The position numbers were made by a program, and so were the translations under genes. A stretch of DNA of 64,000 nucleotides from a phage. Location of the stretch: assembly GCA_011939005.1 (NCBI GenBank), contig GCA_011939005.1_4858.1, one strand, 5' to 3'. Below, piece after piece: positions 11,134-55,000 of the stretch (position 1 is its first letter; each line of letters begins with the position of its first letter). The notes beneath the pieces are model-generated. The model was not told where the DNA came from and ran no database searches. It saw only the letters and a list, made by a program, of their open reading frames with translations.

Positions 11134-12171
11134 TTAGATAGCGACAGGCGCAGATATTTTTTCATGGGACTGATACCCGACGATTTCGAAATCTTCGAAC
11201 TTATAATCGAAGATAGAATCCGGTTTACGCTTGATGACCAGTTTCGGTAAAGGTAAAGGTTCGCGCGTCAGCTGCAATTTAGCCTGTTCCAGATGGTTGG
11301 AGTACAGATGTACGTCACCACCACTCCAAACGAAATCGCCTGGAACCATGTTAACTTGCTGAGCTACCATGTGTACGAGTAATGCGTAAGACGCGATGTT
11401 GAACGGTGTTCCCAGGAAGAAGTCTTGGGAACGTGCATACAGCTGACATGAAAGAATGCGGCGAGGTATTTCAAGTGCGTCCATCTCAACGTGGAACACT
11501 GCGTCGTCTGCAACAGCTTCATTACTAAAGCGGGAATCGTTAAATTGATCTGGAAGGTTCTTTTCAAACCAATCAAGACGCTCGTCGATAGACAGCTCAC
11601 GAGTGTAGAACTGAAAGAACGCATGACACGGAGCTAACGCCATTTGATCCAACTCACCCACATTCCATGCGCTGACAATAATACGGCGACTGTCAGGATC
11701 GTTACGCAGTTGGTCAATCACCTTAGAGATTTGGTCGTGTAGTTTCAGAAGTACACGCGCATCGAACATTTGTGAACCGTCGTCCGCGTCGCCATAATCC
11801 ACGTATCCTGCATCTTGCAGTTTCTCGAGTAAAGCTGCATTTTTCTTAGGCACCAGTTTCACATCTTTCCAACGTCTCCACTGTTCCCCATACAGGGGGC
11901 CAAGGTTCCCATTTTCATCTTGCCACTCCCGCCAAATGGTAACGCCGTTATCTTCCAGATATTTGGTGTTGGTATCGCCACTAAGGAACCACAGCAGTTC
12001 GTGAATAATAGAACGCAGGTGGAGTTTTTTAGTCGTGACTAGTGGGAAACCTTTGCGCAAATCAAAACGCATTTGGCGACCAAAGACGGAGAGCGTCCCT
12101 GTTCCAGTACGGTCGCCTTTAACATGCCCTTCATCCAGAATATTCTGCATCGTTTCAAGGTATTGCTTCAT
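11134..12171 (-). CDS. thyA: thymidylate synthase (ThyA family) with two insertions
   Basis: Near-complete ThyA signature: [94 protein letters not shown]-terminus APVAI; 345 aa versus about 264 in E. coli. Confidence 0.95.
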
Positions 12172-13031
12172 TAGATACTATCCCTCTTTAAGCTTTCAAA
12201 TAAGTAAAGTAGATCATCATTCATCACCACATTCACACCGCCATCTGTGTAGGCTGCGGTTATTTCAGGTACACGTTCGAACAGGATACGATTCCAGCGC
12301 ACTGAGTCACGAACATATTTGTCCAGCAGTTCGTTTAACGTAGTTGCGAGTGCAGCATTGATTGTCGGCAACTCGTCGCGTTTAAACGGCCGGTGGCAAT
12401 AGGGCGCAAGGTGCGTAGCGACACAACTGTCCAGGACAGTCTGGAACATCAGACAGATGGCTGGCCCAGCCATCTGTCTAGAACCAGGCAATTTATCGCC
12501 AGTAAAATCATCAGACGCGGGAACAAACAACCCGATGCCGTTCATTTCACCTTTCGTGTTGATTAGCACACGATGTCCGTTGTATATTACACGGCCGAAT
12601 TCCAGGCCGCAGATACGCGCCAACATTCGGTATTGTCGCGCCAAACTATGCAGCTCGGTAACGTAGCTGTGGGGCTCGTGCTCATCTTGCAATATGAGTC
12701 CAACCACTTCGGTGGCAACAACAAAAAGGTTATGAAGACGGAACTCTTTGGTGTTTCCCGTGGTGCGGTCTTTTATAGCTGCATCCAGTGGAATAACGAA
12801 ATCTCCCACGTTCGTGTGCTTGCCGAAGTGCAACAGACCAACGAACGCCCAAAGAGAGCGACCCATGGCCGCCGCCACTTTCAAGTTGTCCATCTTCTGC
12901 ACACCTTCAGCGACGTCGCCTAATGTGCGATAGAACTTGGCTAGCTGCTGCTCGCGTGTCCCGTATTGGTAAATCTTCGCTTGCCGGTACCAATCATCAA
13001 CCGCCTGAGTCTGCTGAATAATACTAAGCAT
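12171..13031 (-). CDS. hypothetical protein, translationally coupled to thyA
   Basis: Stop overlaps thyA start; ATG at 13031 has RBS aggagg (track start 13097 would overlap upstream gene by 74 nt). Possible MazG-like helix pattern, weak. Confidence 0.55.
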
Positions 13032-13443
13032 ACTCTTCCTCCTGATACGCGTAGCAGATTGCAAAGTTAAGCTGGCCGGTTGCGCGAGAAACGACAACGG
13101 CGATAGTCTGGTCTTCTACACCCGACATCGGTGTGCCCTGGTTAACCATTTGACCTGCGGCTTTACTTACCGGACCCAGCAAACGCCAGCTGTACAGACG
13201 GCTACGTAACGCGGCGTTTTGTAAGAAAGCGGAGCCGCAATCATAGTCGATGTTAAACGCCGCAAACATTGGACCACAGTTTGCCATCGTGCCGTTTAAC
13301 GGCAGCTCGCTCGTTACCACAATCTTCACAGGCTTGTCTTTGAGACGTTGTGCTAACGCTTCCCAGTTAGCGTTATTAGTGCCAGCGACGATGGTGTTGT
13401 TCAGAAGTAAGCCAACGCCTTTTTCAAACGCGATATTGTTCAT
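13024..13443 (-). CDS. hypothetical protein
   Basis: 139-aa ORF, ATG start; no motif recognised. Confidence 0.5.
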   Translation of the reverse strand: MNNIAFEKGVGLLLNNTIVAGTNNANWEALAQRLKDKPVKIVVTSELPLNGTMANCGPMFAAFNIDYDCGSAFLQNAALRSRLYSWRLLGPVSKAAGQMVNQGTPMSGVEDQTIAVVVSRATGQLNFAICYAYQEEEYA

Positions 13444-13491
13444 TATAGTTCTCCTTGAGGTCTTTTACATACGTACAGCCGTGGCCGTAAA

Positions 13492-18117: not shown

Positions 18118-18193
18118 AGGTGTTATCCTATTATGAGATGTTGTCTCGGATAGATAATATCTGTCTGAGTTCTTTTTGAGATGAGGTTATCCC
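18118..18193. promoter_or_regulatory. divergent intergenic region carrying motif TAGATAATATCTGTCTGAG
   Basis: 76-bp gap between divergently oriented genes; contains near-palindromic AT-rich motif (18151-18169) shared with two other intergenic sites. Confidence 0.4.
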
Positions 18194-22131: not shown

Positions 22132-22229
22132 CAGGTGTTACCTTTTTGCAGTTCTCGTACATAAGGTTTGGGTGATACGTAAAAGACTTACTATGTAGCC
22201 CAATCCCTTATATATTCGAGGTTGATAGA
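22132..22229. promoter_or_regulatory. divergent promoter region
   Basis: 98-bp AT-rich gap between divergently transcribed genes. Confidence 0.35.
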
Positions 22230-22985: not shown

Positions 22986-23040
22986 AAAGTAAGCAGTACC
23001 CACTCCCCTTACGGGAGTGGGTAGGCTTTATTTTATTTGC
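22985..23040. terminator. bidirectional rho-independent terminator
   Basis: Stem tacccactccc / gggagtgggta (22997-23023) flanked by A-run and ggctttattttatttgc. Confidence 0.7.
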
Positions 23041-23956
23041 ATTTAGAACCGTTGACAAATGTCGGCGGTATCCATTTCAAAATCTTTGTCCGATTCCCGT
23101 CACGTGGACCGAGCCAGTAAGTACACCAGTGTGCACGACGCATATGCGCACATCTGCTACCTTGTGTTCTTTTCTCCGTATCAGTATCAAATTCTTCAAG
23201 ATACTCGCTTTGTGCTTTTACGGTGGAGAGGACAGTCGGTTTAGATTTTGGTTCAATGTGGTAATTGGCGATACGTTTCTTTCCAGTTAATTGTCTCAGT
23301 TTGACGGGTGTAGGGTTGTGCGGGATCAGTGAGAATGTAAACATGGTAGCGCCGACAATGCGTAACGTTTTCTCATTGGCCGGCGTACCAGTTTCCGCCA
23401 CACGCAAGGATACAAAGCCGTCACCCACGTCCACGATTTCAAAGGTTTCCCCCTCGATACGTTTTCCAAAAATCATCATTGTTAAACAATCTTTCCCTTT
23501 AAACATTCGCCGACCGAAAACGTAAGTCTTTTCTTGGATACCGATATCTTTAGCGCGATAGCACACTGAAAAGGAGACGGCCCAACCGGGAATCTTGTCT
23601 ATCCAGCTGCGTGGTATCTCAGTGAGAACGTCGCCAAGTAGAACTTGTTCAAAAATATTAAGATCAAATTCCATTTGGATACCCCCGTATCGCCAGCCGT
23701 AGGCAAGAGACAGGAAGTCTGCGGTGCATTCTTCGGCGAAGCAGTTCTTTAGGAACGCCTCAATCGGTATAAAGTGCTGGCCTATCTCGCCACAATGGGC
23801 TATTGCGTATTGCTCGATGATGGCGGGATCTCCACTTCTGGATTTCACACGTTCGTCGATTTTAGTAAGACCGTTTAAGAAATTACTCGGGGATTCGCGC
23901 ATACCGATTACATCTACATTTACCGATTCTGCCAAATCAAAAAGAAAGCTGTCCAT
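23033..23956 (-). CDS. hypothetical protein
   Basis: 307-aa ORF, ATG with RBS aaggag. Confidence 0.55.
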   Translation of the reverse strand: MDSFLFDLAESVNVDVIGMRESPSNFLNGLTKIDERVKSRSGDPAIIEQYAIAHCGEIGQHFIPIEAFLKNCFAEECTADFLSLAYGWRYGGIQMEFDLNIFEQVLLGDVLTEIPRSWIDKIPGWAVSFSVCYRAKDIGIQEKTYVFGRRMFKGKDCLTMMIFGKRIEGETFEIVDVGDGFVSLRVAETGTPANEKTLRIVGATMFTFSLIPHNPTPVKLRQLTGKKRIANYHIEPKSKPTVLSTVKAQSEYLEEFDTDTEKRTQGSRCAHMRRAHWCTYWLGPRDGNRTKILKWIPPTFVNGSKCK

Positions 23957-23985
23957 TTAATACTCCTTTAGATTAATGGTCGATT

Positions 23986-24020
23986 AAAATAAAACTACGG
24001 ACACCCCGAAGAGTGTCCGT
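23986..24020 (-). terminator. rho-independent terminator
   Basis: Stem acggacac / gtgtccgt (23997-24020) with A-run 23986-23995. Confidence 0.55.
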
Positions 24021-24024
24021 TTAA

Positions 24025-26652: not shown

Positions 26653-26685
26653 CGTGAATAAATTCTCCTTAAGGTTACGTCCCTG

Positions 26686-26704
26686 TAGATAATATCTATC
26701 TCAG
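26686..26704. promoter_or_regulatory. conserved AT-rich near-palindromic motif (candidate promoter element)
   Basis: TAGATAATATCTATCTCAG; 13-bp core TAGATA-A-TATCTA is palindromic around its centre; lies between a stop codon and the next RBS. Confidence 0.4.
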
Positions 26705-26705
26705 A

Positions 26706-29681: not shown

Positions 29682-29726
29682 TTCAACTCTCCACGAGATT
29701 ATATATCACACTATTGACTATTAACG

Positions 29727-29765
29727 TAAAAAAGGAAATCCCCTCTTACCCGAAGGTAAGAGGGA
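29727..29765 (-). terminator. rho-independent terminator (UUCG loop on minus transcript)
   Basis: Stem ccctcttacc / ggtaagaggg with loop cgaa (29741-29764), A-run 29728-29733. Confidence 0.55.
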
Positions 29766-33997: not shown

Positions 33998-34057
33998 GTT
34001 AATAGTCCTTATAAAAGTCAATGGTATTTTCAGATGATTAGTTACTGCTGTAAAAAA

Positions 34058-37447: not shown

Positions 37448-37698
37448 TTTAATTCCTCAAAAACTATAGGCACCGGCAGCGTACCAAGCGCTGCTTTAAT
37501 ACACGTACTCAGCGGAGTATCATCGAACGCAACACGACCGATAGTACCCACGTTGATGTGTTTTGGATTTACGGGTAAGAACTCCTTCGCCCGTTCGTAC
37601 TCAGCCCAACAGACATCGGTGTTTAAAGCTGAAAACCCAGGACGGTGAAACATAAATAGCACTCCTCGCGTAAAAATACCCCACTCATAGTGAGGCAT
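37444..37698 (-). CDS. hypothetical protein
   Basis: 84-aa ORF, ATG start, ATGA-coupled to downstream gene. Confidence 0.45.
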   Translation of the reverse strand: MPHYEWGIFTRGVLFMFHRPGFSALNTDVCWAEYERAKEFLPVNPKHINVGTIGRVAFDDTPLSTCIKAALGTLPVPIVFEELK

Positions 37699-41848: not shown

Positions 41849-41901
41849 GTTTGCCTTCTAATGAGAAAGTATTAGTCGTTCATATCCAAAAGGTCATGCG
41901 T

Positions 41902-41934
41902 AAAAAAGAAGAAATGGAACCCCGAAGGGTTCCA
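41902..41934 (-). terminator. rho-independent terminator
   Basis: Stem tggaaccc / gggttcca with loop cgaa; A-rich run 41901-41914. Confidence 0.55.
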
Positions 41935-43126: not shown

Positions 43127-43255
43127 TTGCTTAATCCTTACGGGTAATAGTCGATTAAAAAGGACCCTGCGGCTAAGTGTTGGGGAGATCACCGCAGGGC
43201 CAAAGTGAGATGGGTCGTCATCTCACGTTATAACATCTGTCTGAAAACTTTTCGG

Positions 43256-44965: not shown

Positions 44966-44990
44966 GTTTTACTCTATAGTCGATTGGTTT

Positions 44991-45020
44991 AAAAAAGAAT
45001 AGGCTACCCGGAGGTAGCCA
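44991..45020 (-). terminator. rho-independent terminator
   Basis: Stem taggctacc / ggtagcc(a) with loop cgga; A-run 44991-44996. Confidence 0.5.
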
Positions 45021-45069
45021 TTGAGTTAATCTCTTAACTCTCACCTAAGTAATATATATCTGAGATATT

Positions 45070-48717: not shown

Positions 48718-48838
48718 TTGGTATTTCCTTTTAAAGTACACTAAAGTGACCAAAAAATGTTACTAAAGAACAGTTGGTGTTTAAGCGACTGTGGGTTTAT
48801 ACACAATGCTCACTAAGATGACATCTATCTGTAAAAAC

Positions 48839-49156
48839 TTAGTATACGACCAGTACGATGCAGTCATCGATAGCCAGATTCAGTAATGAGTAGTCGTTAC
48901 TTAACCGCTGGTAACGCATCCCTTTTTCAAACCGACTTAGTTGTTCAGTCGGCATGACGTATACCGCGCTTTGCACTACTCCCGTAAACAGTTCGTCGTA
49001 GAACTGGTCTACTTCCCCGACTTTGTAAAAGCGCATTCTTTGATTGTTAGCAAAGACGCTATCTAGCTTCCCGTTACTGGCTTTCTGTAACGCAGTAAAG
49101 GCACTGTCTGCATCATTACGCTCTAATGCACTTTTAATGGTTTGAAATAAAGACAT
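48839..49156 (-). CDS. hypothetical protein
   Basis: 105-aa ORF, ATG start. Confidence 0.45.
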   Translation of the reverse strand: MSLFQTIKSALERNDADSAFTALQKASNGKLDSVFANNQRMRFYKVGEVDQFYDELFTGVVQSAVYVMPTEQLSRFEKGMRYQRLSNDYSLLNLAIDDCIVLVVY

Positions 49157-49340
49157 GGTACTGCACTCCTCGTTAGGTTAAAAGTCAAGGTCAACTACAA
49201 AACAAAAGGATGTCGGTATCCTACGGATACCTCCGTTTATGTTCGCATCCAATACATAAACCCCCTTACCCCCGTACTCTCCTCGATTGTCAAACGATGA
49301 GATCGAAACGTAAAAAAGTGTAGTATGAGAGGAGGGTGGT

Positions 49341-50273
49341 ATGAACAAATCTAAGTCAGGGTTGCACATCTTCTCGATAGGTATCGTCGCGGAAGATAAA
49401 CCTCGTGGTGCCACTCGAGTTAAAGTCATCCCTATCGAAGTTAACTTTATTAATCCAACAGCTGTCGATGCAACAGAGACGCCTGTAGAGAAGCAACACA
49501 ACAGTTTAAGTGGTACTGACAACCTTACTGTAAAGCAAGGTAATGCCATCACTGCAAAATGGATGAAGTCCAACAGCAACCGGGTTAACCCTCCGGATGT
49601 GAAAAAAGAAGACTACGTAAGAATCTGGCGTATCGGTGAAACCGATATGTACTTCTGGGAAGATTTAAACAACAGTAACGTTAAGCGACTGGAAGATGGG
49701 GTATACGCCTGGTCTGCTGACCCAGTAAACCAGATGGCCGATGACCTCTCTAACGCCTACGTACTGAATATCTCCCCGATGGATGGTCACGTTACTTTAC
49801 GTACCAGTATGACTAACGGCGAGAAAAATGCGTATTTGCTCCAGCTGAATACCCGTGACGGGTTTTGCCAGTTAGTGGATGACGAAGGGCGTAAGTTCTA
49901 CCTCAACTCTCCAGAGGATGACTTAGGGTTTGAAAACGCCTGCCGGTCGAAGATTAATATCAATAAAGAGGACGCTTTCATTTATGCTAAACGTTCTATT
50001 AATCTCGAGACAAAGACGATTAACGAGAAGTGCGAAACTCGCAACTCTACAGCGTCGAAAAACATGGCATGGAAGACTGAAGACTGGAAGACCACATGCC
50101 CAACGAATCTATTTACCGGTAACCTGGAAGTAGGTAAAGATTTCCTCTATAACGGCAAAGGTGAAGGTAAGGGCACATTCACAGTTACCGAATCGGTTAT
50201 CGGCGGCATCACCTTTACTCTTCACGTACATACTGGCCATGGTCCGGGCAACGACACCAGTACACCACACTAA
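49341..50273 (+). CDS. hypothetical protein (plus-strand island)
   Basis: 310-aa ORF, ATG with RBS gagaggaggg; preceded by a 184-bp intergenic region. Confidence 0.55.
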   Translation: MNKSKSGLHIFSIGIVAEDKPRGATRVKVIPIEVNFINPTAVDATETPVEKQHNSLSGTDNLTVKQGNAITAKWMKSNSNRVNPPDVKKEDYVRIWRIGETDMYFWEDLNNSNVKRLEDGVYAWSADPVNQMADDLSNAYVLNISPMDGHVTLRTSMTNGEKNAYLLQLNTRDGFCQLVDDEGRKFYLNSPEDDLGFENACRSKININKEDAFIYAKRSINLETKTINEKCETRNSTASKNMAWKTEDWKTTCPTNLFTGNLEVGKDFLYNGKGEGKGTFTVTESVIGGITFTLHVHTGHGPGNDTSTPH

Positions 50274-50480
50274 GTTATTTACGTGTGTGGGGTATAATGT
50301 GACAATAAACCCCTAACTGTAACGATAACCCGAATCGCTTGTGCACAGTTAGCCACTTTTTTCGCACAAAAGCCGGTTTATTGTCAACTAATTTACGAGT
50401 CGGGGCAGTTAATATGCCTTGAAGTACAAGTAGTTGAACATAGGGTTCTTCTGCTATCATTTGTTAATGGAGATAAGTAA

Positions 50481-50690
50481 ATGAGCATTCGTGAAATCAC
50501 CGCAGGCAGCGACGTTTCTGGTCTGGTAGAAGCAGGCACCGTTCAGGTTTCTGGACTGAGCACCGTTACCGAAGTTACCGAAGCGCTGGCTAAGAAAGCC
50601 GAAGCTGAAGGCGGCGTAGCATTTAAAGTTACCGCTTGCGGCGGCAACAACAAAATGTTCGGCAACGCCATCTATTACGTAAACGCGTAA
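50481..50690 (+). CDS. DUF1471 (YdgH/BhsA/YjfY)-like small protein without signal peptide
   Basis: 69 aa; VSGLSTVTEVTEALAKKAEAEGGVAFKVTACGGNNKMFGNAIYY fits the enterobacterial DUF1471 pattern; an in-frame stop lies immediately upstream of the ATG; RBS ggagataag. Confidence 0.6.
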   Translation: MSIREITAGSDVSGLVEAGTVQVSGLSTVTEVTEALAKKAEAEGGVAFKVTACGGNNKMFGNAIYYVNA

Positions 50691-50703
50691 TCGGCCTGCA
50701 GGC

Positions 50704-50762
50704 AAAAAAAGATATAGGTACCCTACTCCCGTTGGGAGTAGGGTTTACCTTTTATTTTTTTC
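50704..50762. terminator. bidirectional rho-independent terminator
   Basis: Stem accctactccc / gggagtagggt (50720-50744) flanked by A-run and ttaccttttatttttttcg. Confidence 0.7.
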
Positions 50763-52014
50763 GTGCTTTGTAGCGATGCATTTCAACAAATGGCTTACCC
50801 CAAGCCCCGAAAGGCCCGACGATTGCCTGCGCGTCGTTTACCAAATTCTGGTTATACCAACGCGCGTTCCCCAACAAAAAGTTTTCCCGGTCGAAGAATG
50901 TGGTATTAAAGACCCACTCCCCTTCTTCCCAGGTCGGCCAGTACCCTACACATTTACCAATACGGTTAAAGATAGGACCTAGCGTCTTCTTCCCATCTGG
51001 GTCAGTCGGGTCTTTTAAATAGAACCGGCCCCAGATAGCGTTGTGGCTTATTCCGTGAATCTCTTTTTCGAGATACGGGTTGTCTATCGTAAAGATAAAC
51101 GAGGATTCGTGCGTCAGCAACGCTTTTAACGTTTCTGAGTTACGAATACGTTGAACGGACGTAGGCGTACTTAAATCACCTACACCGATGGCGTCCCAAT
51201 CGTAATAGCGACGGGTTTCCAATACAATCTTCGCCACGCTAAGGTTTGGCAGACTCAGCATAATCGCACGGTCGCTGAAATAGCCCTGCGGTGGCAACCA
51301 ATGCAGAATACCCCCGATGACGAACCCAACGGTTTTCCCTGTAATGGAATCGGGTAAGGTCAACATTAACGAAGAATAGTAATCTCGCGTAGTATCGAGT
51401 TTGTTCATCGTTAAACCGGATATGGGGTAAGTCTTCACTTTACCAATATTCGCCATCACTAGACAGCCGATGTCGGGTGTGTTGGCTCTCCGCACGATGT
51501 TACCAGCACCGGTTAAGCGAACGCCCACAGGGTCAGATTGGTGCGGTACCCACTGACCGTTGATGTTGTACAGTACCCCGGTACGGTATTTTTCTTTCCA
51601 CTCATCGTCGCAGACTACAACAACGTCGTGCGCATCATCAGGGTTGAAGTCCTGAGTGTAATGGTACCCAGGAGGGCACAGGTGCGTTTCTACGGGCACA
51701 TCTGCATTAATAGACTGGTAATGTGCCTCAGCGAATTCTAACTTCGGTAGGCCTTTCCCAAGCGTTGGAATTGCGATTCCTGACTTGGTGTTTAACCAAT
51801 CTTGCAACGTGTCCGTACGGTTTTGTAAATCAGCCAGGTGATACTGGCTATAGAAGGTATATTCGGCACCTAGTGCTTCTAGTCCTACTTCGAAAAAGTG
51901 GTAGTTAGCACAAAGGGTATTTAAGGGCTGCGTGACATCGATGGTTCCCCAAGTTCGGGTGTCTCGAGAGAAGCCAAAAGCGCTGTCGGCCCGCACTTGA
52001 TAAGCAGTAGTCAC
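50752..52014 (-). CDS. hypothetical protein, divergent from tail-fibre operon
   Basis: 420-aa ORF with GTG start at 52014 and RBS gagga; no motif recognised. Confidence 0.55.
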   Translation of the reverse strand: MTTAYQVRADSAFGFSRDTRTWGTIDVTQPLNTLCANYHFFEVGLEALGAEYTFYSQYHLADLQNRTDTLQDWLNTKSGIAIPTLGKGLPKLEFAEAHYQSINADVPVETHLCPPGYHYTQDFNPDDAHDVVVVCDDEWKEKYRTGVLYNINGQWVPHQSDPVGVRLTGAGNIVRRANTPDIGCLVMANIGKVKTYPISGLTMNKLDTTRDYYSSLMLTLPDSITGKTVGFVIGGILHWLPPQGYFSDRAIMLSLPNLSVAKIVLETRRYYDWDAIGVGDLSTPTSVQRIRNSETLKALLTHESSFIFTIDNPYLEKEIHGISHNAIWGRFYLKDPTDPDGKKTLGPIFNRIGKCVGYWPTWEEGEWVFNTTFFDRENFLLGNARWYNQNLVNDAQAIVGPFGAWGKPFVEMHRYKARKK

Positions 52015-52081
52015 TGGCTGTTTCCTCTAAGGATTCGGGTCATAGTATGAACTCGACGCCCTCAGAGAAAAGGAGTGTAAA
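52015..52081. promoter_or_regulatory. divergent promoter region of the tail-fibre operon
   Basis: 67-bp gap between divergently oriented genes; contains TAGTATGA, also present upstream of the plus-strand gene at 49341. Confidence 0.35.
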
Positions 52082-55000
52082 ATGGCTGTCGTCCCTGACC
52101 CGCACTATCAAGAACCGGGGAATATGCAGACCGGTGAAGCGGTAACGCCGATCGGTACTAAGTACCGGATGCTGTTCCCCGCACACGCCCCCTTTTATAC
52201 CACATCCCTGGTGGTCAAGAGTGGCGGCAAGAAATTAACATTAGGTGATGATTACGTCATCACCCATGCGTACGTTACGGGCATGGCACGCACTGGCCAT
52301 GTTTGTCACGGCGGCGTGTGGATTACCAACCCGAAATATCAGAGTGGCTTTACACTCGATTACCACGCAATTGGCATCGGTGAAGCCACTGCAGAAATGA
52401 TCGCCGCAGAACGAGAAGCGAATAAAGATCGCTATCCCGTGGACTGCCAATGGGATAACGTCATTGGGGATTTATATTTCCCACCGGTCGATATTAAGTT
52501 CGATTGGGAAAACTGGCGTGGCGAATCTGAGTTGATGGAAGCCATTGTTGCGGTTGGTGCTAAGCTCGGTGAAGCGATCAGTCGCGTTGACCCGATTGCT
52601 CGTAACACGTTAGACCTTCAATATCGCGCCGGCGTCACGCTTATCACGTCCGAGCAGTATGCGACGTACGACGGTACTGGCGGCTACACGTATAACGCGT
52701 CACGTCGTCGTTATTCGTTATCTTACCAGAACACGACATTCGATGCGTATTCGTTAGCGGTAAAATACCGTTTACCGAGCATTCCACCGGAAACAACGTT
52801 GAACCCAGGCGAGTTGATCGATTGGATGCTCTGTTACGCAAACGGTGGGACAAGTATCCTGCGTCTTCAGTTGAAGCAACGCGCGATTTATCTTACCTTA
52901 ACGACAGCGATTGGTTCCGGTTCGTCCAATTACAGCTATACGTTGACGACTGGCCTGACTGATACCGAGTTGGCGGGTGAGGTTGAGTTTAGCGTGGTCA
53001 GACGCGAAGGTAACGGCGTTTACGACATCACCGTTAAAACAAGCAAGCAAACCGTTAACTACAGCTTTAACGTTGACAACCCACCGAGCGAATTTGCACC
53101 AGGGTATCAGAAAACTGATGTCGCAAAATGGTTGAAGTTTAAATCGGGCGTCAACCTAAACTGGTGGGCAGGTGAGAACGATTACGTCCAGATTCGTTCA
53201 TTACCAGGCGCACCGGCACCTGACGTTAACAATGACGTGTACCAGCTGCTGGTAAAATATCACCAGATTGTCGATAAACTGTACCGTGATGCACCGGCAC
53301 ACACACACGTGCCGCGCAAGGATAACCCGCATCGCGATTCGTGGGGCGCAATCCGTGCTTTGGAGAATAACGGTATTGCTTCGGACGCGACACTGGTATA
53401 CGGAAAAACGCAACCGCAGCTGACAGATTACGTTAACAATCTGTTGCCGAAACTGTCAACGCTGGCGAATAAGCTTTTACGTTTACCGGCGGCTGCACAG
53501 TCTATCATCGGCACGTTCGGCATGAAGCCTGGCCTGACTTCAATAACGTCAGCAGTGGGTACCGATGAGTCTGAAGGCGTGGGTGCACAATTCACGGTTG
53601 ACCCGAGGGTTATCCGTTTTATTGGCCGCGATTCGCAAACCGTTAACGCCGGGAACAATCCGATTACATGGCAAGGTGGGGCTAACCAACTCATCCTTTA
53701 TCCGGATTCCCGTGGATTGGAGTTCAACGGTAAGAAACTGTTGGACCCTACTACGGTCGGGCCGTACCTGCCGGGTAACGAATCAGGTGGTGATGGACTG
53801 TTTTACGGAACATCCACAGCTACTGTAACCATTAACGGTAACGGTATTCAGTCTGTTCCGTTCATTTGTACCTTTGTTCCACCGGAGTCCGATGACCTTG
53901 GCCTGATGGCTGTCCGTTTGTTGGCTACTGAATTCGGCGATCGTGAGGACTTGGCCGCAACGCCGGCACTCATCAAGAAATTGGATCAGCAGTTTACGGG
54001 CAAGTTGGTTGCCGTTAAATCGTACATCAACGACATGCCACTGACGAGTTCTATTTACATCGATAAAACTAACTTCGGCTTATCGAACGTACAGAACATC
54101 CCAGATGTACAATTGCCGATTTCCCCGCTCCAACAAGCTGAGCTGGACAAGTATGCAGTCGTCGGTCACAAACACACTTCTGCCGCGTTCGGGATTAAGC
54201 GTGCAACAACGACGGAGTTCGGTTTAGTACAGTTCGGCACCGCGGTTGACGATGCCACTCTGGCATTAGACGGTGGTGAGGTCATCCGACAGGCGGACGC
54301 CATCACAGAGATAGAGAAGGTTGCGAAGACAGTCGACTCTGGTGCTTCAATCAACATTATTCGTTACGGTTTACCCGGCACGGATATCATTGAAAACGGC
54401 ATCACTTACACCGACTGGATGGTTACTATTAAAGCGAACGATTATTTCGTTGGTCGCGAGTACAAAGTACCTCTCTCCACATTTAACTTGGCGGAGCTAT
54501 TCCCAGCGACGCACGAAGATGCTGAGTTTGGCGTGTATGTTGACGCGGCGGGCGATGACGGCAAGTACATTATCTACGAAAATCCAAACACGGCAGAAAC
54601 TGAGACGATGACCAAAATAGGTTCCATCATCACCAGTGAAACCGGTGTGGTTTTTGTAGAAATCCGCAACGTGACGCGTTTAGGTGAGTTCCGTGAATTA
54701 GGCGAGCATATCGAGGATGATAACGCCCATATTCGTCGGGGCATGACGCAAGCTGAATTCGGATTTACTTACGGTACGGGCGGGCCTGTGTGGTCCACGG
54801 GCGCACCGGGTACAAAACGTATAGATGCTGATTGGCGTTACGCGCAGGCTAGCGGCTATACGCCTATGTTGAAAGCGGACTACGATCCGGCTGCTGATAA
54901 ATGGACGTTTAAAACAACCAGTTTATCTGTAACCGATTATCGTTTTGTCCACAACACGTTCCCGATGTTCCAGAATAACGGCATTACCGCAACGTGGACA

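Follow-up and report, generated by a model that had tools for sequence, protein, structure and literature searches.

A signal-less DUF1471 protein encoded beside the tail spike gene of SPN3US-like jumbo phages

Introduction

Enterobacterial genomes each encode ten or more paralogs of the DUF1471/YhcN family (BhsA/YcfR, McbA/YbiM, YbiJ, YhcN, YahO, SrfN and YdgH; PF07338), which rank among the small envelope proteins most strongly induced by stress; no molecular function has been assigned to them. Members natively reside in the periplasm; SrfN binds sulfated polysaccharides, and other members affect outer-membrane properties. The family is restricted to Enterobacteriaceae (PMC4092069). Here we describe a member that is encoded by a phage: in a 64,000-nucleotide stretch of phage DNA (NCBI GenBank assembly GCA_011939005.1, contig GCA_011939005.1_4858.1; “the window” in what follows), a 69-residue DUF1471 protein, gp172, is encoded just downstream of the central tail spike gene. 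We hold, with moderate confidence, that gp172 is an anciently captured host envelope domain that is made without export, is built into the virion (probably into its tail or baseplate) and is transcribed from promoters of phage type.

Three described systems invite comparison. The first is the moron of temperate phages, a concept of Hendrix and colleagues exemplified by the bor and lom genes of lambda; the initial annotation of this DNA had called the gp172 locus moron-like. The second is the spike of phage phiKZ, which is gp164: in phiKZ-type phages, the small gene right after the spike gene encodes gp163.1, the PAAR spike tip, which matches PAAR and PDB entry 6P1Z. The third is transcription in phiKZ, where middle promoters carry the motif AAanTTACc centred at about -24 and late promoters the motif T(-3)ATG(+1), the latter being required for the non-virion phage polymerase, while some middle promoters have both (PMC4666361).

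Results

Family and fold of gp172

Over positions 49300-52100 the window shows 98.5% identity to Salmonella phage SPN3US (Seoulvirus) and about 30 close relatives, and it is, judged by its sequence, DNA of an SPN3US-like jumbo phage (Seoulvirus). The gene and its start region are as follows:

50469-50480 (+): ribosome-binding site GGAG (50469-50472) and in-frame stop codon TAA (50478-50480), from reading of the sequence
50481-50690 (+): signal-less DUF1471 coding sequence, 69 residues, from Pfam, NCBIfam, an AlphaFold2 (AF2) model and the ratio of nonsynonymous to synonymous substitution rates (dN/dS)

The open reading frame (ORF) is gp172 of SPN3US (SPN3US_0172, YP_009153466.1) at 100% protein identity, encodes a protein of about 7 kDa, already bears the RefSeq name “DUF1471 domain-containing protein” and has a gap of 8 nt between its GGAG and its ATG. 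The initial annotation had proposed both the 69-residue DUF1471 ORF and the in-frame stop before its ATG, and both are borne out: the hidden Markov model (HMM) for PF07338 (YdgH/BhsA/McbA-like) matches significantly (E=3.3e-11; 43.5 bits against a gathering cut-off of 27), with residues 16-66 aligned to profile positions 2-54/55. A Pfam scan of gp172 gave PF07338 as the sole match, with none to PAAR (PF05488), and all tested phage orthologs score above the PF07338 cut-off (29.7-68.1 bits). The AF2 model (mean predicted local distance difference test score, pLDDT, 89.8) has a beta-alpha-beta-beta order of elements (strand 15-26, helix 29-42, strands 47-54 and 59-68), and its top PDB matches are all DUF1471 structures (SrfN 2MA8, YdgH 4EVU, 2JNA, 2M2J, 2NOC and YahO 2MA4, representing the solved domains of SrfN, YdgH, STM0082, STM1478 and YahO), with template modelling (TM) scores of 0.66-0.78 and root-mean-square deviations of 2.0-3.6 A; the next match is RcsF. 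Core residues of the family are retained at G19, V21, G25, L36, A40, G44, G55, N57, G61, A63 and Y66. Two antisense ORFs (50275-50460 and 50457-50705) were considered and set aside as by-products, since the family match and the purifying selection described below are found in the plus-strand frame only.

Membership of the family does not extend to membership of a named subgroup. Scores of gp172 fall far under every NCBIfam equivalog cut-off (BhsA NF047859, 39.4 versus 90 bits; McbA NF040473, 40.9 versus 110), and the best relative against the BhsA equivalog, the protein of phage Kwan, reaches 60.4 bits versus the same cut-off of 90; with scores of this order, gp172 is not an ortholog of BhsA or of any named paralog. 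The nearest bacterial protein is a BhsA-like protein of Salmonella enterica (52% identity over a 46-residue core), the nearest bacterial matches by genus are Salmonella, Phytobacter, Kluyvera, Citrobacter and Serratia, and the hosts of phages bearing gp172 (Salmonella, Escherichia, Proteus and Erwinia) lie within the only bacterial group that has DUF1471. At the DNA level, blastn of the gp172 DNA against 5,426 E. coli genomes returned no match, and the GC content of the gene (0.52 versus 0.48 for the window) is ordinary. A recent host origin is rejected on these two grounds.

Absence of a signal peptide

Bacterial members were reached only with a full HMM search, a word-based protein search having stopped at the phage clade. 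The profile search for gp172 homologs covered 1.84 billion representative proteins and gave 73 matches, in which the bacterial proteins are mostly 75-92 residues long and, where retrieved, start with classic signal peptides, as had been claimed for host DUF1471 proteins; the full-length matches without a signal peptide, among the 73, are phage proteins only. The NCBIfam models for BhsA, McbA, YbiJ, YhcN and YahO align to gp172 only from about position 29 of their 85-91-residue precursors, that is, over the mature domain, and peak hydrophobicity at the N terminus is 0.6-1.4 for the phage clade versus about 1.9-3.1 for most bacterial homologs.

A hidden upstream start that would supply a signal peptide was sought in the window and in eight relatives. 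In none of these nine phages was a usable in-frame start with a hydrophobic stretch found: the frame upstream of the start either closes at once by a stop codon or offers no start codon together with such a stretch, and the possibility is rejected. The initial annotation was thus right that the copy is signal-less, as the TAA upstream, the low N-terminal hydrophobicity and the point at which the HMMs begin all agree. Its placing of the end point of the protein in the cytoplasm is not supported, however, since identical SPN3US gp172 has been detected in virions purified on cesium chloride (CsCl) gradients (PMC5694885).

Reported detection of gp172 in purified virions

The detection comes from the proteome of CsCl-purified wild-type SPN3US by Ali et al. 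(2017), in which gp172 was represented by 4 unique peptides and 6 spectra, with 81% coverage (PMC5694885). Mass-normalised spectral counts (SC/M) in that study are 0.86 for gp172, 0.93 for the 12-copy portal, 0.74 for gp171 and 0.23 for the spike gp173, and gp172 does not bear the head-protein flag; the authors describe it as a low-abundance protein of unknown function and as the smallest in the virion (PMC5694885).

Distribution, selection and age

A signal-less DUF1471 gene of 67-77 codons occupies a common slot, in a common orientation, in Erwinia phages of four genera beyond Seoulvirus:

phiEaH2 (Erskinevirus): gp172 ortholog, same slot and strand
Machina, ChrisDB and Caitlin (Machinavirus): gp172 ortholog, same slot and strand
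Kwan (Wellingtonvirus; annotated “putative BhsA”): gp172 ortholog, same slot and strand
Phobos and EarlPhillipIV (Derbicusvirus): gp172 ortholog, same slot and strand

Phage pEa_SNUABM_29 also has an ortholog, and IMG/VR holds orthologs at 16 loci, every one of them on a jumbo-phage contig. The protein is 100% identical across intact Seoulvirus records. The identity of the spike protein across the whole gp172-bearing set drops to 48%. For pairs with unsaturated synonymous sites, dN/dS of gp172 is 0.08-0.23, which points to purifying selection. In the distant jumbo phages Kc263, PS1, RAY and SPLA10 the spike homolog is followed directly by a convergent gene and the slot is empty. Because the gene is syntenic in five genera, has these low dN/dS values and is absent from the slot in distant relatives, we read it as an old single insertion that was later fixed, and not as a recent or loosely attached moron. 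The label “moron-like” therefore holds in part: the locus has its own terminator, is an insertion relative to Kc263, PS1, RAY and SPLA10 and belongs to a host-derived family, but it is not loosely attached: five genera or more share its position, it evolves under purifying selection, its GC content is ordinary, and it has neither similarity to E. coli DNA nor a sigma70 promoter.

Wellingtonvirus has a second signal-less DUF1471 gene in tandem, directly downstream of the first (Kwan, L006:4108-4668; also L019:2742-3305); its 186-residue product consists of an N-terminal domain (Pfam, 29.7 bits) and a long, acidic, apparently disordered tail.

Alleles at the locus do not follow the listed genera throughout. 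Caitlin, listed as Machinavirus, carries a Seoulvirus-type allele (L014:3001-3210; 78% amino acid identity to the window), whereas ChrisDB and Machina (L004, L005) carry a phiEaH2-type allele (47-50% amino acid identity), which suggests that alleles have been exchanged at this locus between jumbo-phage genera.

Six SPFM records (SPFM5, 7, 9, 10, 12 and 15; LR535903, LR535904, LR535907, LR535908, LR535911 and LR535913) match the region in short pieces only and have truncated gene calls of 61 residues (P0009-P0011); this pattern looks like an assembly artefact and not like loss of gp172.

The spike slot

Two structural genes enclose gp172:

49341-50273 (+): central tail spike, SPN3US gp173 (PDB 6ORJ, Mu gp45, phrog_3216)
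50752-52014 (-): convergent tail/baseplate gene gp171 (9XQD PHIKZ130)

The whole unit had been described as lying on the strand opposite to its surrounding genes; this is true of the downstream gene only, which is convergent, the upstream gene being on the plus strand as well. Residues 6-223 of gp173 match phiKZ gp164 (PDB 6ORJ PHIKZ164; E=3.2e-27), residues 243-304 resemble the apex domain of gp45, the puncturing device of Mu (3VTO, 9KI1; E about 0.003), and the protein also matches phrog_3216, a baseplate assembly protein. Relative to phiKZ, the spike thus reads as a mosaic of a gp164-like N-terminal part and a C-terminal part like the Mu gp45 apex. On the other side, gp171 matches phiKZ gp130 (9XQD PHIKZ130; E=8e-11), which is a baseplate connector, and gp171 is essential and tail-associated in SPN3US (PMC5105663). 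The slot of gp172 accordingly lies between homologs of phiKZ gp164 and gp130, and in phiKZ-type phages the gene at the corresponding place is that of the PAAR tip.

A diverged PAAR spike tip was nevertheless rejected as an identity for gp172, which has no PAAR match and another fold; moreover, since the slot is empty in intermediate relatives, gp172 is a later insertion and not a diverged PAAR protein. An SPN3US-type spike would probably not need a PAAR-like cap in any case, because gp173 carries its own Mu gp45-like apex domain.

Leader and promoter-like motifs

The leader between the spike gene and gp172 (50274-50480) is 207 nt long, as originally given, and is AT-rich only mildly so, at 40% GC versus 48% for the window. 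It contains a direct repeat of two promoter-like elements:

50278-50301 (+): promoter-like P1, TTTAC (50278-50282), 15-nt spacer, TGTG (50298-50301); supported by the direct repeat with P2 and by conservation
50392-50416 (+): promoter-like P2, TTTAC (50392-50396), 16-nt spacer, TATG (50413-50416); supported by conservation and enrichment

P1 begins right after the stop codon of the spike gene, and relatives have TTAC-N15-TATG or TGTG in its place. In P2, the TATG and the TT of TTTAC are invariant in nine phages, and most of the nine leaders have TTTAC 15-16 nt before the invariant TATG; a start at G50416, as predicted from P2, would give a 5' untranslated region (UTR) of 65 nt.

The motif is strongly concentrated outside genes. 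TTTAC-N15/16-T[AG]TG occurs in 8 copies in the window, 6-7 of them (depending on the strictness of counting) in intergenic DNA, which makes up 4.3% of the window, and TTTAC is followed by T[AG]TG at this spacing in 7/18 intergenic cases versus 1/218 coding ones (binomial P=6e-9). Four of the intergenic copies lie 25-33 nt before start codons. Further intergenic copies, of the form shared with P1 and P2, are:

13468-13491, 22160-22183, 29707-29730 and 41881-41904 (-): motif TTTACG-N14/15-T[A/G]TG, intergenic

Copies of this TTTACG form usually stand 25-33 nt before start codons and often right after the T-run of a terminator. TTTAC-N15-TnTG variants occur near 34050, 45689, 48831 and 49310 (-), and at 37651-37674 (-) a promoter-like copy has a TATG that supplies the ATG start codon of RefSeq gp074, which may mean a leaderless gp074 mRNA or a chance match. 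The motif is also found at non-structural genes, for instance an SMC/SbcC-like gene and an exoribonuclease; before the start codons of the structural genes on either side of gp172, at 15-35 nt, TATG stands without TTTAC. By analogy with phiKZ, TTTAC-N15/16-T[A/G]TG is a candidate middle/late promoter motif of SPN3US-like phages; a search of the literature for an SPN3US transcriptome found none.

The initial annotation had instead pointed to sigma70-like elements. A TATAAT hexamer does exist, at 50293-50298 inside the P1 spacer, but it has no -35 partner and is not conserved in an alignment of nine leaders, and a sigma70 scan of 3.2 kb (49000-52200) gave 0 sites versus 4.5 expected by chance; a sigma70 promoter for gp172 is rejected on this evidence.

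A further AT-rich motif, approximately CAGAnAGAT(A/G)TTATCT, recurs in intergenic regions of the window (18118-18193, 26653-26705, 43127-43255, 44966-45069 and 48718-48838) and is absent from the gp172 leader; it looks like the phiKZ-type early class of promoters, used by the virion RNA polymerase (vRNAP).

Other leader elements and the terminator

The remaining features of the intergenic DNA on either side of gp172 are these:

50300-50386 (+): nested perfect inverted repeats, 12 bp (50300-50311/50375-50386) and 8 bp (50313-50320/50345-50352); leader fold z=-2.5
50335-50364 (+): conserved non-coding block TCGCTTG...GCCACTTTTTTCG, from cross-genus alignment; one copy in the window
50436-50448 (+): small hairpin in the 5' UTR, GAAC-ATAGG-GTTC, from comparison by eye only
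50704-50761 (both strands): bidirectional intrinsic terminator, with A7 at 50704-50710, stem at 50720-50744 and T-rich tail at 50745-50761

The nested repeats span the interval between P1 and P2 and are lineage-specific. The block at 50335-50364 has been retained between genera with saturated synonymous sites; no consensus structure was found for it across genera, and a small ORF on either strand was rejected for want of a consistent reading frame. The 5' UTR hairpin has the form AGAC-ATAGG-GTCT in relatives (by eye). A conserved structured RNA or small RNA was rejected as an account of the leader: it has no Rfam match at E<=1, RNAalifold on 11 leaders recovered only the terminator hairpin of the relatives, and compensatory closing stems noted by eye in the leaders of SNUABM29 and phiEaH2 are not shared by the other genera.

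That hairpin is an intrinsic terminator with a UUCG loop, located between the spike gene and P2 and showing compensatory stem changes (L013:3580-3610, L003:3535-3565, L014:2895-2930 and equivalents); the window counterpart, 50386-50392, does not have it, and the SPN3US-type leader has lost it, with the nested repeats at 50300-50386 now standing there instead. With this terminator lost, transcripts of the spike gene could read into gp172. Downstream, the strong bidirectional terminator that had been claimed is indeed there: its stem has 11 bp, 7 of them G-C, with folding z values of -4.8 (+) and -4.5 (-). It is common to gp172 and the convergent gp171, and relatives have the same architecture with different stem sequences. 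With upstream signals and a terminator, gp172 looks like its own transcription unit, much as the original description of a self-contained unit had it.

Elsewhere, the window differs from SPN3US in two places: 12151-13020, in the place of RefSeq gp038, has no blastn match and holds a different ORF of 308 residues (12171-13097, -), and 22986-24024 is an extra 1039 nt that separates two neighbouring genes of SPN3US and carries an ORF of 307 residues (23033-23956, -). Pfam gave no match for either ORF.

Discussion

The course of events that we favour begins in an ancestor of the SPN3US/Erwinia jumbo-phage clade, which would have taken a DUF1471 domain of BhsA/McbA-like type from an enterobacterial host, minus its Sec signal, and fixed it in the slot just 3' of the central tail spike gene. 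The gene would now probably be transcribed by a phage RNA polymerase from the two tandem phiKZ-type middle/late motifs, possibly with additional expression by read-through from the spike gene, and its transcripts would end at the terminator common with gp171. Because it has no export signal, gp172 would stay in the compartment where virions assemble and become a minor constituent of the particle, its most likely place being the tail or baseplate; in the next infection it may function at the envelope of the cell, as a small module for binding or as an adaptor, a role that is a conservative guess from the biology of the family.

Several points weigh against this account. A single data set with just 6 spectra supplies the virion evidence, gp172 went undetected in 47(am1) particles, and the authors themselves say that its status needs more work (PMC5694885); it also goes unmentioned in the SPN3US proteomes of 2016 (PMC5105663). 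The proposed tail location draws on gene position, and the gp45-like apex on the spike leaves no need for gp172 in a PAAR-like capping role. The promoter assignment borrows its motifs from phiKZ, and DUF1471 has no known molecular function that could be transferred to gp172.

Some of these points would suit a non-structural intracellular protein, either a chaperone that helps to assemble the spike or baseplate or a binder of host factors, with the trace in the virion being carry-over; we regard this as possible but doubtful. Small chaperone genes often adjoin those of their tail-protein clients, gp172 has no signal peptide, the spectra are few and the protein is absent from 47(am1) particles, and some of the genes with the TTTAC-TATG motif (those for the SMC/SbcC-like protein and the exoribonuclease) are non-structural. 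Carry-over fits poorly, however, with 81% coverage and a mass-normalised count equal to that of the 12-copy portal, and above that of the spike, in CsCl-purified particles, and the protein has no chaperone-like family signal, its fold being that of an envelope protein family.

A virion-delivered periplasmic effector would also explain the presence of gp172 in particles. Here the protein would sit on or near the spike, be freed into the periplasm at penetration, bypassing Sec, and there imitate or rival the DUF1471 or RcsF-like proteins of the host, changing early in infection how permeable the outer membrane is or how envelope stress is signalled. The periplasm is the native compartment of the family, gp172 corresponds to the mature domain only, its fold resembles that of RcsF, its gene follows the spike gene directly in the slot of the phiKZ PAAR tip, and the phiKZ spike complex has been proposed to dissociate after crossing the outer membrane. 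The idea is wholly inferential, though; the SPN3US-type spike terminates in an apex domain of its own and offers no obvious docking site, and the rough estimate of abundance is above that expected for a single tip-bound molecule, and we consider such an effector unlikely. The specific proposal that spike-borne, Sec-independent delivery of gp172 to the periplasm blunts envelope-stress or permeability responses at the start of infection, by imitation or antagonism of the DUF1471 or RcsF-like proteins of the host, is quite unlikely in our judgement; if true, gp172 would parallel, in a phage, the type VI effectors that ride on a spike, and its delivery could give a handle on the molecular function of DUF1471.

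Finally, a classical moron, that is, a loosely attached sigma70 unit whose cytoplasmic DUF1471 product serves a host-directed or fitness role unrelated to the virion, is very improbable, for while gp172 has its own upstream signals and terminator, a TATAAT hexamer (50293-50298), a host-derived family and no counterpart in distant relatives, that hexamer is unconserved and lacks a -35 element in a region with 0 sigma70-like scan sites, phiKZ-type phages use their own polymerases and SPN3US packages vRNAP subunits (PMC5694885), the gene is fixed, keeps its place in at least five genera and is subject to purifying selection, its GC is ordinary and its DNA has no similarity to that of the host, and a lytic phage passes through no prophage stage that would make a moron worthwhile.

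The DUF1471 assignment (RefSeq) and the virion detection (published) were already known. What appears to be new is their combination with the rest: a phage-wide, signal-less DUF1471 subfamily, fixed beside the spike in the slot that holds the PAAR protein in phiKZ and preceded by phiKZ-type motifs; a literature search for discussion of this combination, including the “BhsA” gene of Erwinia phage, found nothing. A family and a context can now be given to the smallest virion protein of SPN3US, listed in the literature as of unknown function. That a signal-less copy has been kept for so long beside a cell-puncturing device, and apparently in the particle, suggests that the domain has an envelope-binding activity that is useful to a virus, and gp172 mutants of the model phage SPN3US would be a simple genetic system in which to search for DUF1471 ligands. 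As a by-product, SPN3US-like phages, for which promoters had not previously been described, now have a candidate middle/late promoter motif.

Set against the described systems, gp172 is like the enterobacterial DUF1471 proteins by HMM, fold and core residues and unlike them in that all phage orthologs lack a signal peptide, that the gene sits beside a spike gene in a lytic jumbo phage with promoter motifs of phage type, and that its product has been reported in virions. With phiKZ gp163.1 (PDB 6P1Z, 9XPH) it shares the arrangement of spike gene, small same-strand gene and convergent gene, as well as small size and reported detection in virions; gp163.1, however, is a PAAR-motif protein, whereas gp172 has no PAAR match and another fold, and the phiKZ spike has a blunt beta-helix end where the SPN3US-type spike has a Mu gp45-like apex. 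Like the morons of temperate phages, it is a host-like extra gene flanked by conserved structural ones and equipped with upstream signals and a terminator of its own, but it belongs to a lytic phage, has no sigma70 promoter, is of ordinary composition, is old, fixed and under purifying selection, and its product has been reported in the virion. P2, with TTTAC at -24 to -20 and TATG at -3 to +1, resembles the phiKZ middle/late promoters (PMC4666361), except that the A-rich part upstream of the phiKZ motif is usually replaced here by a T-run, often the tail of a terminator.

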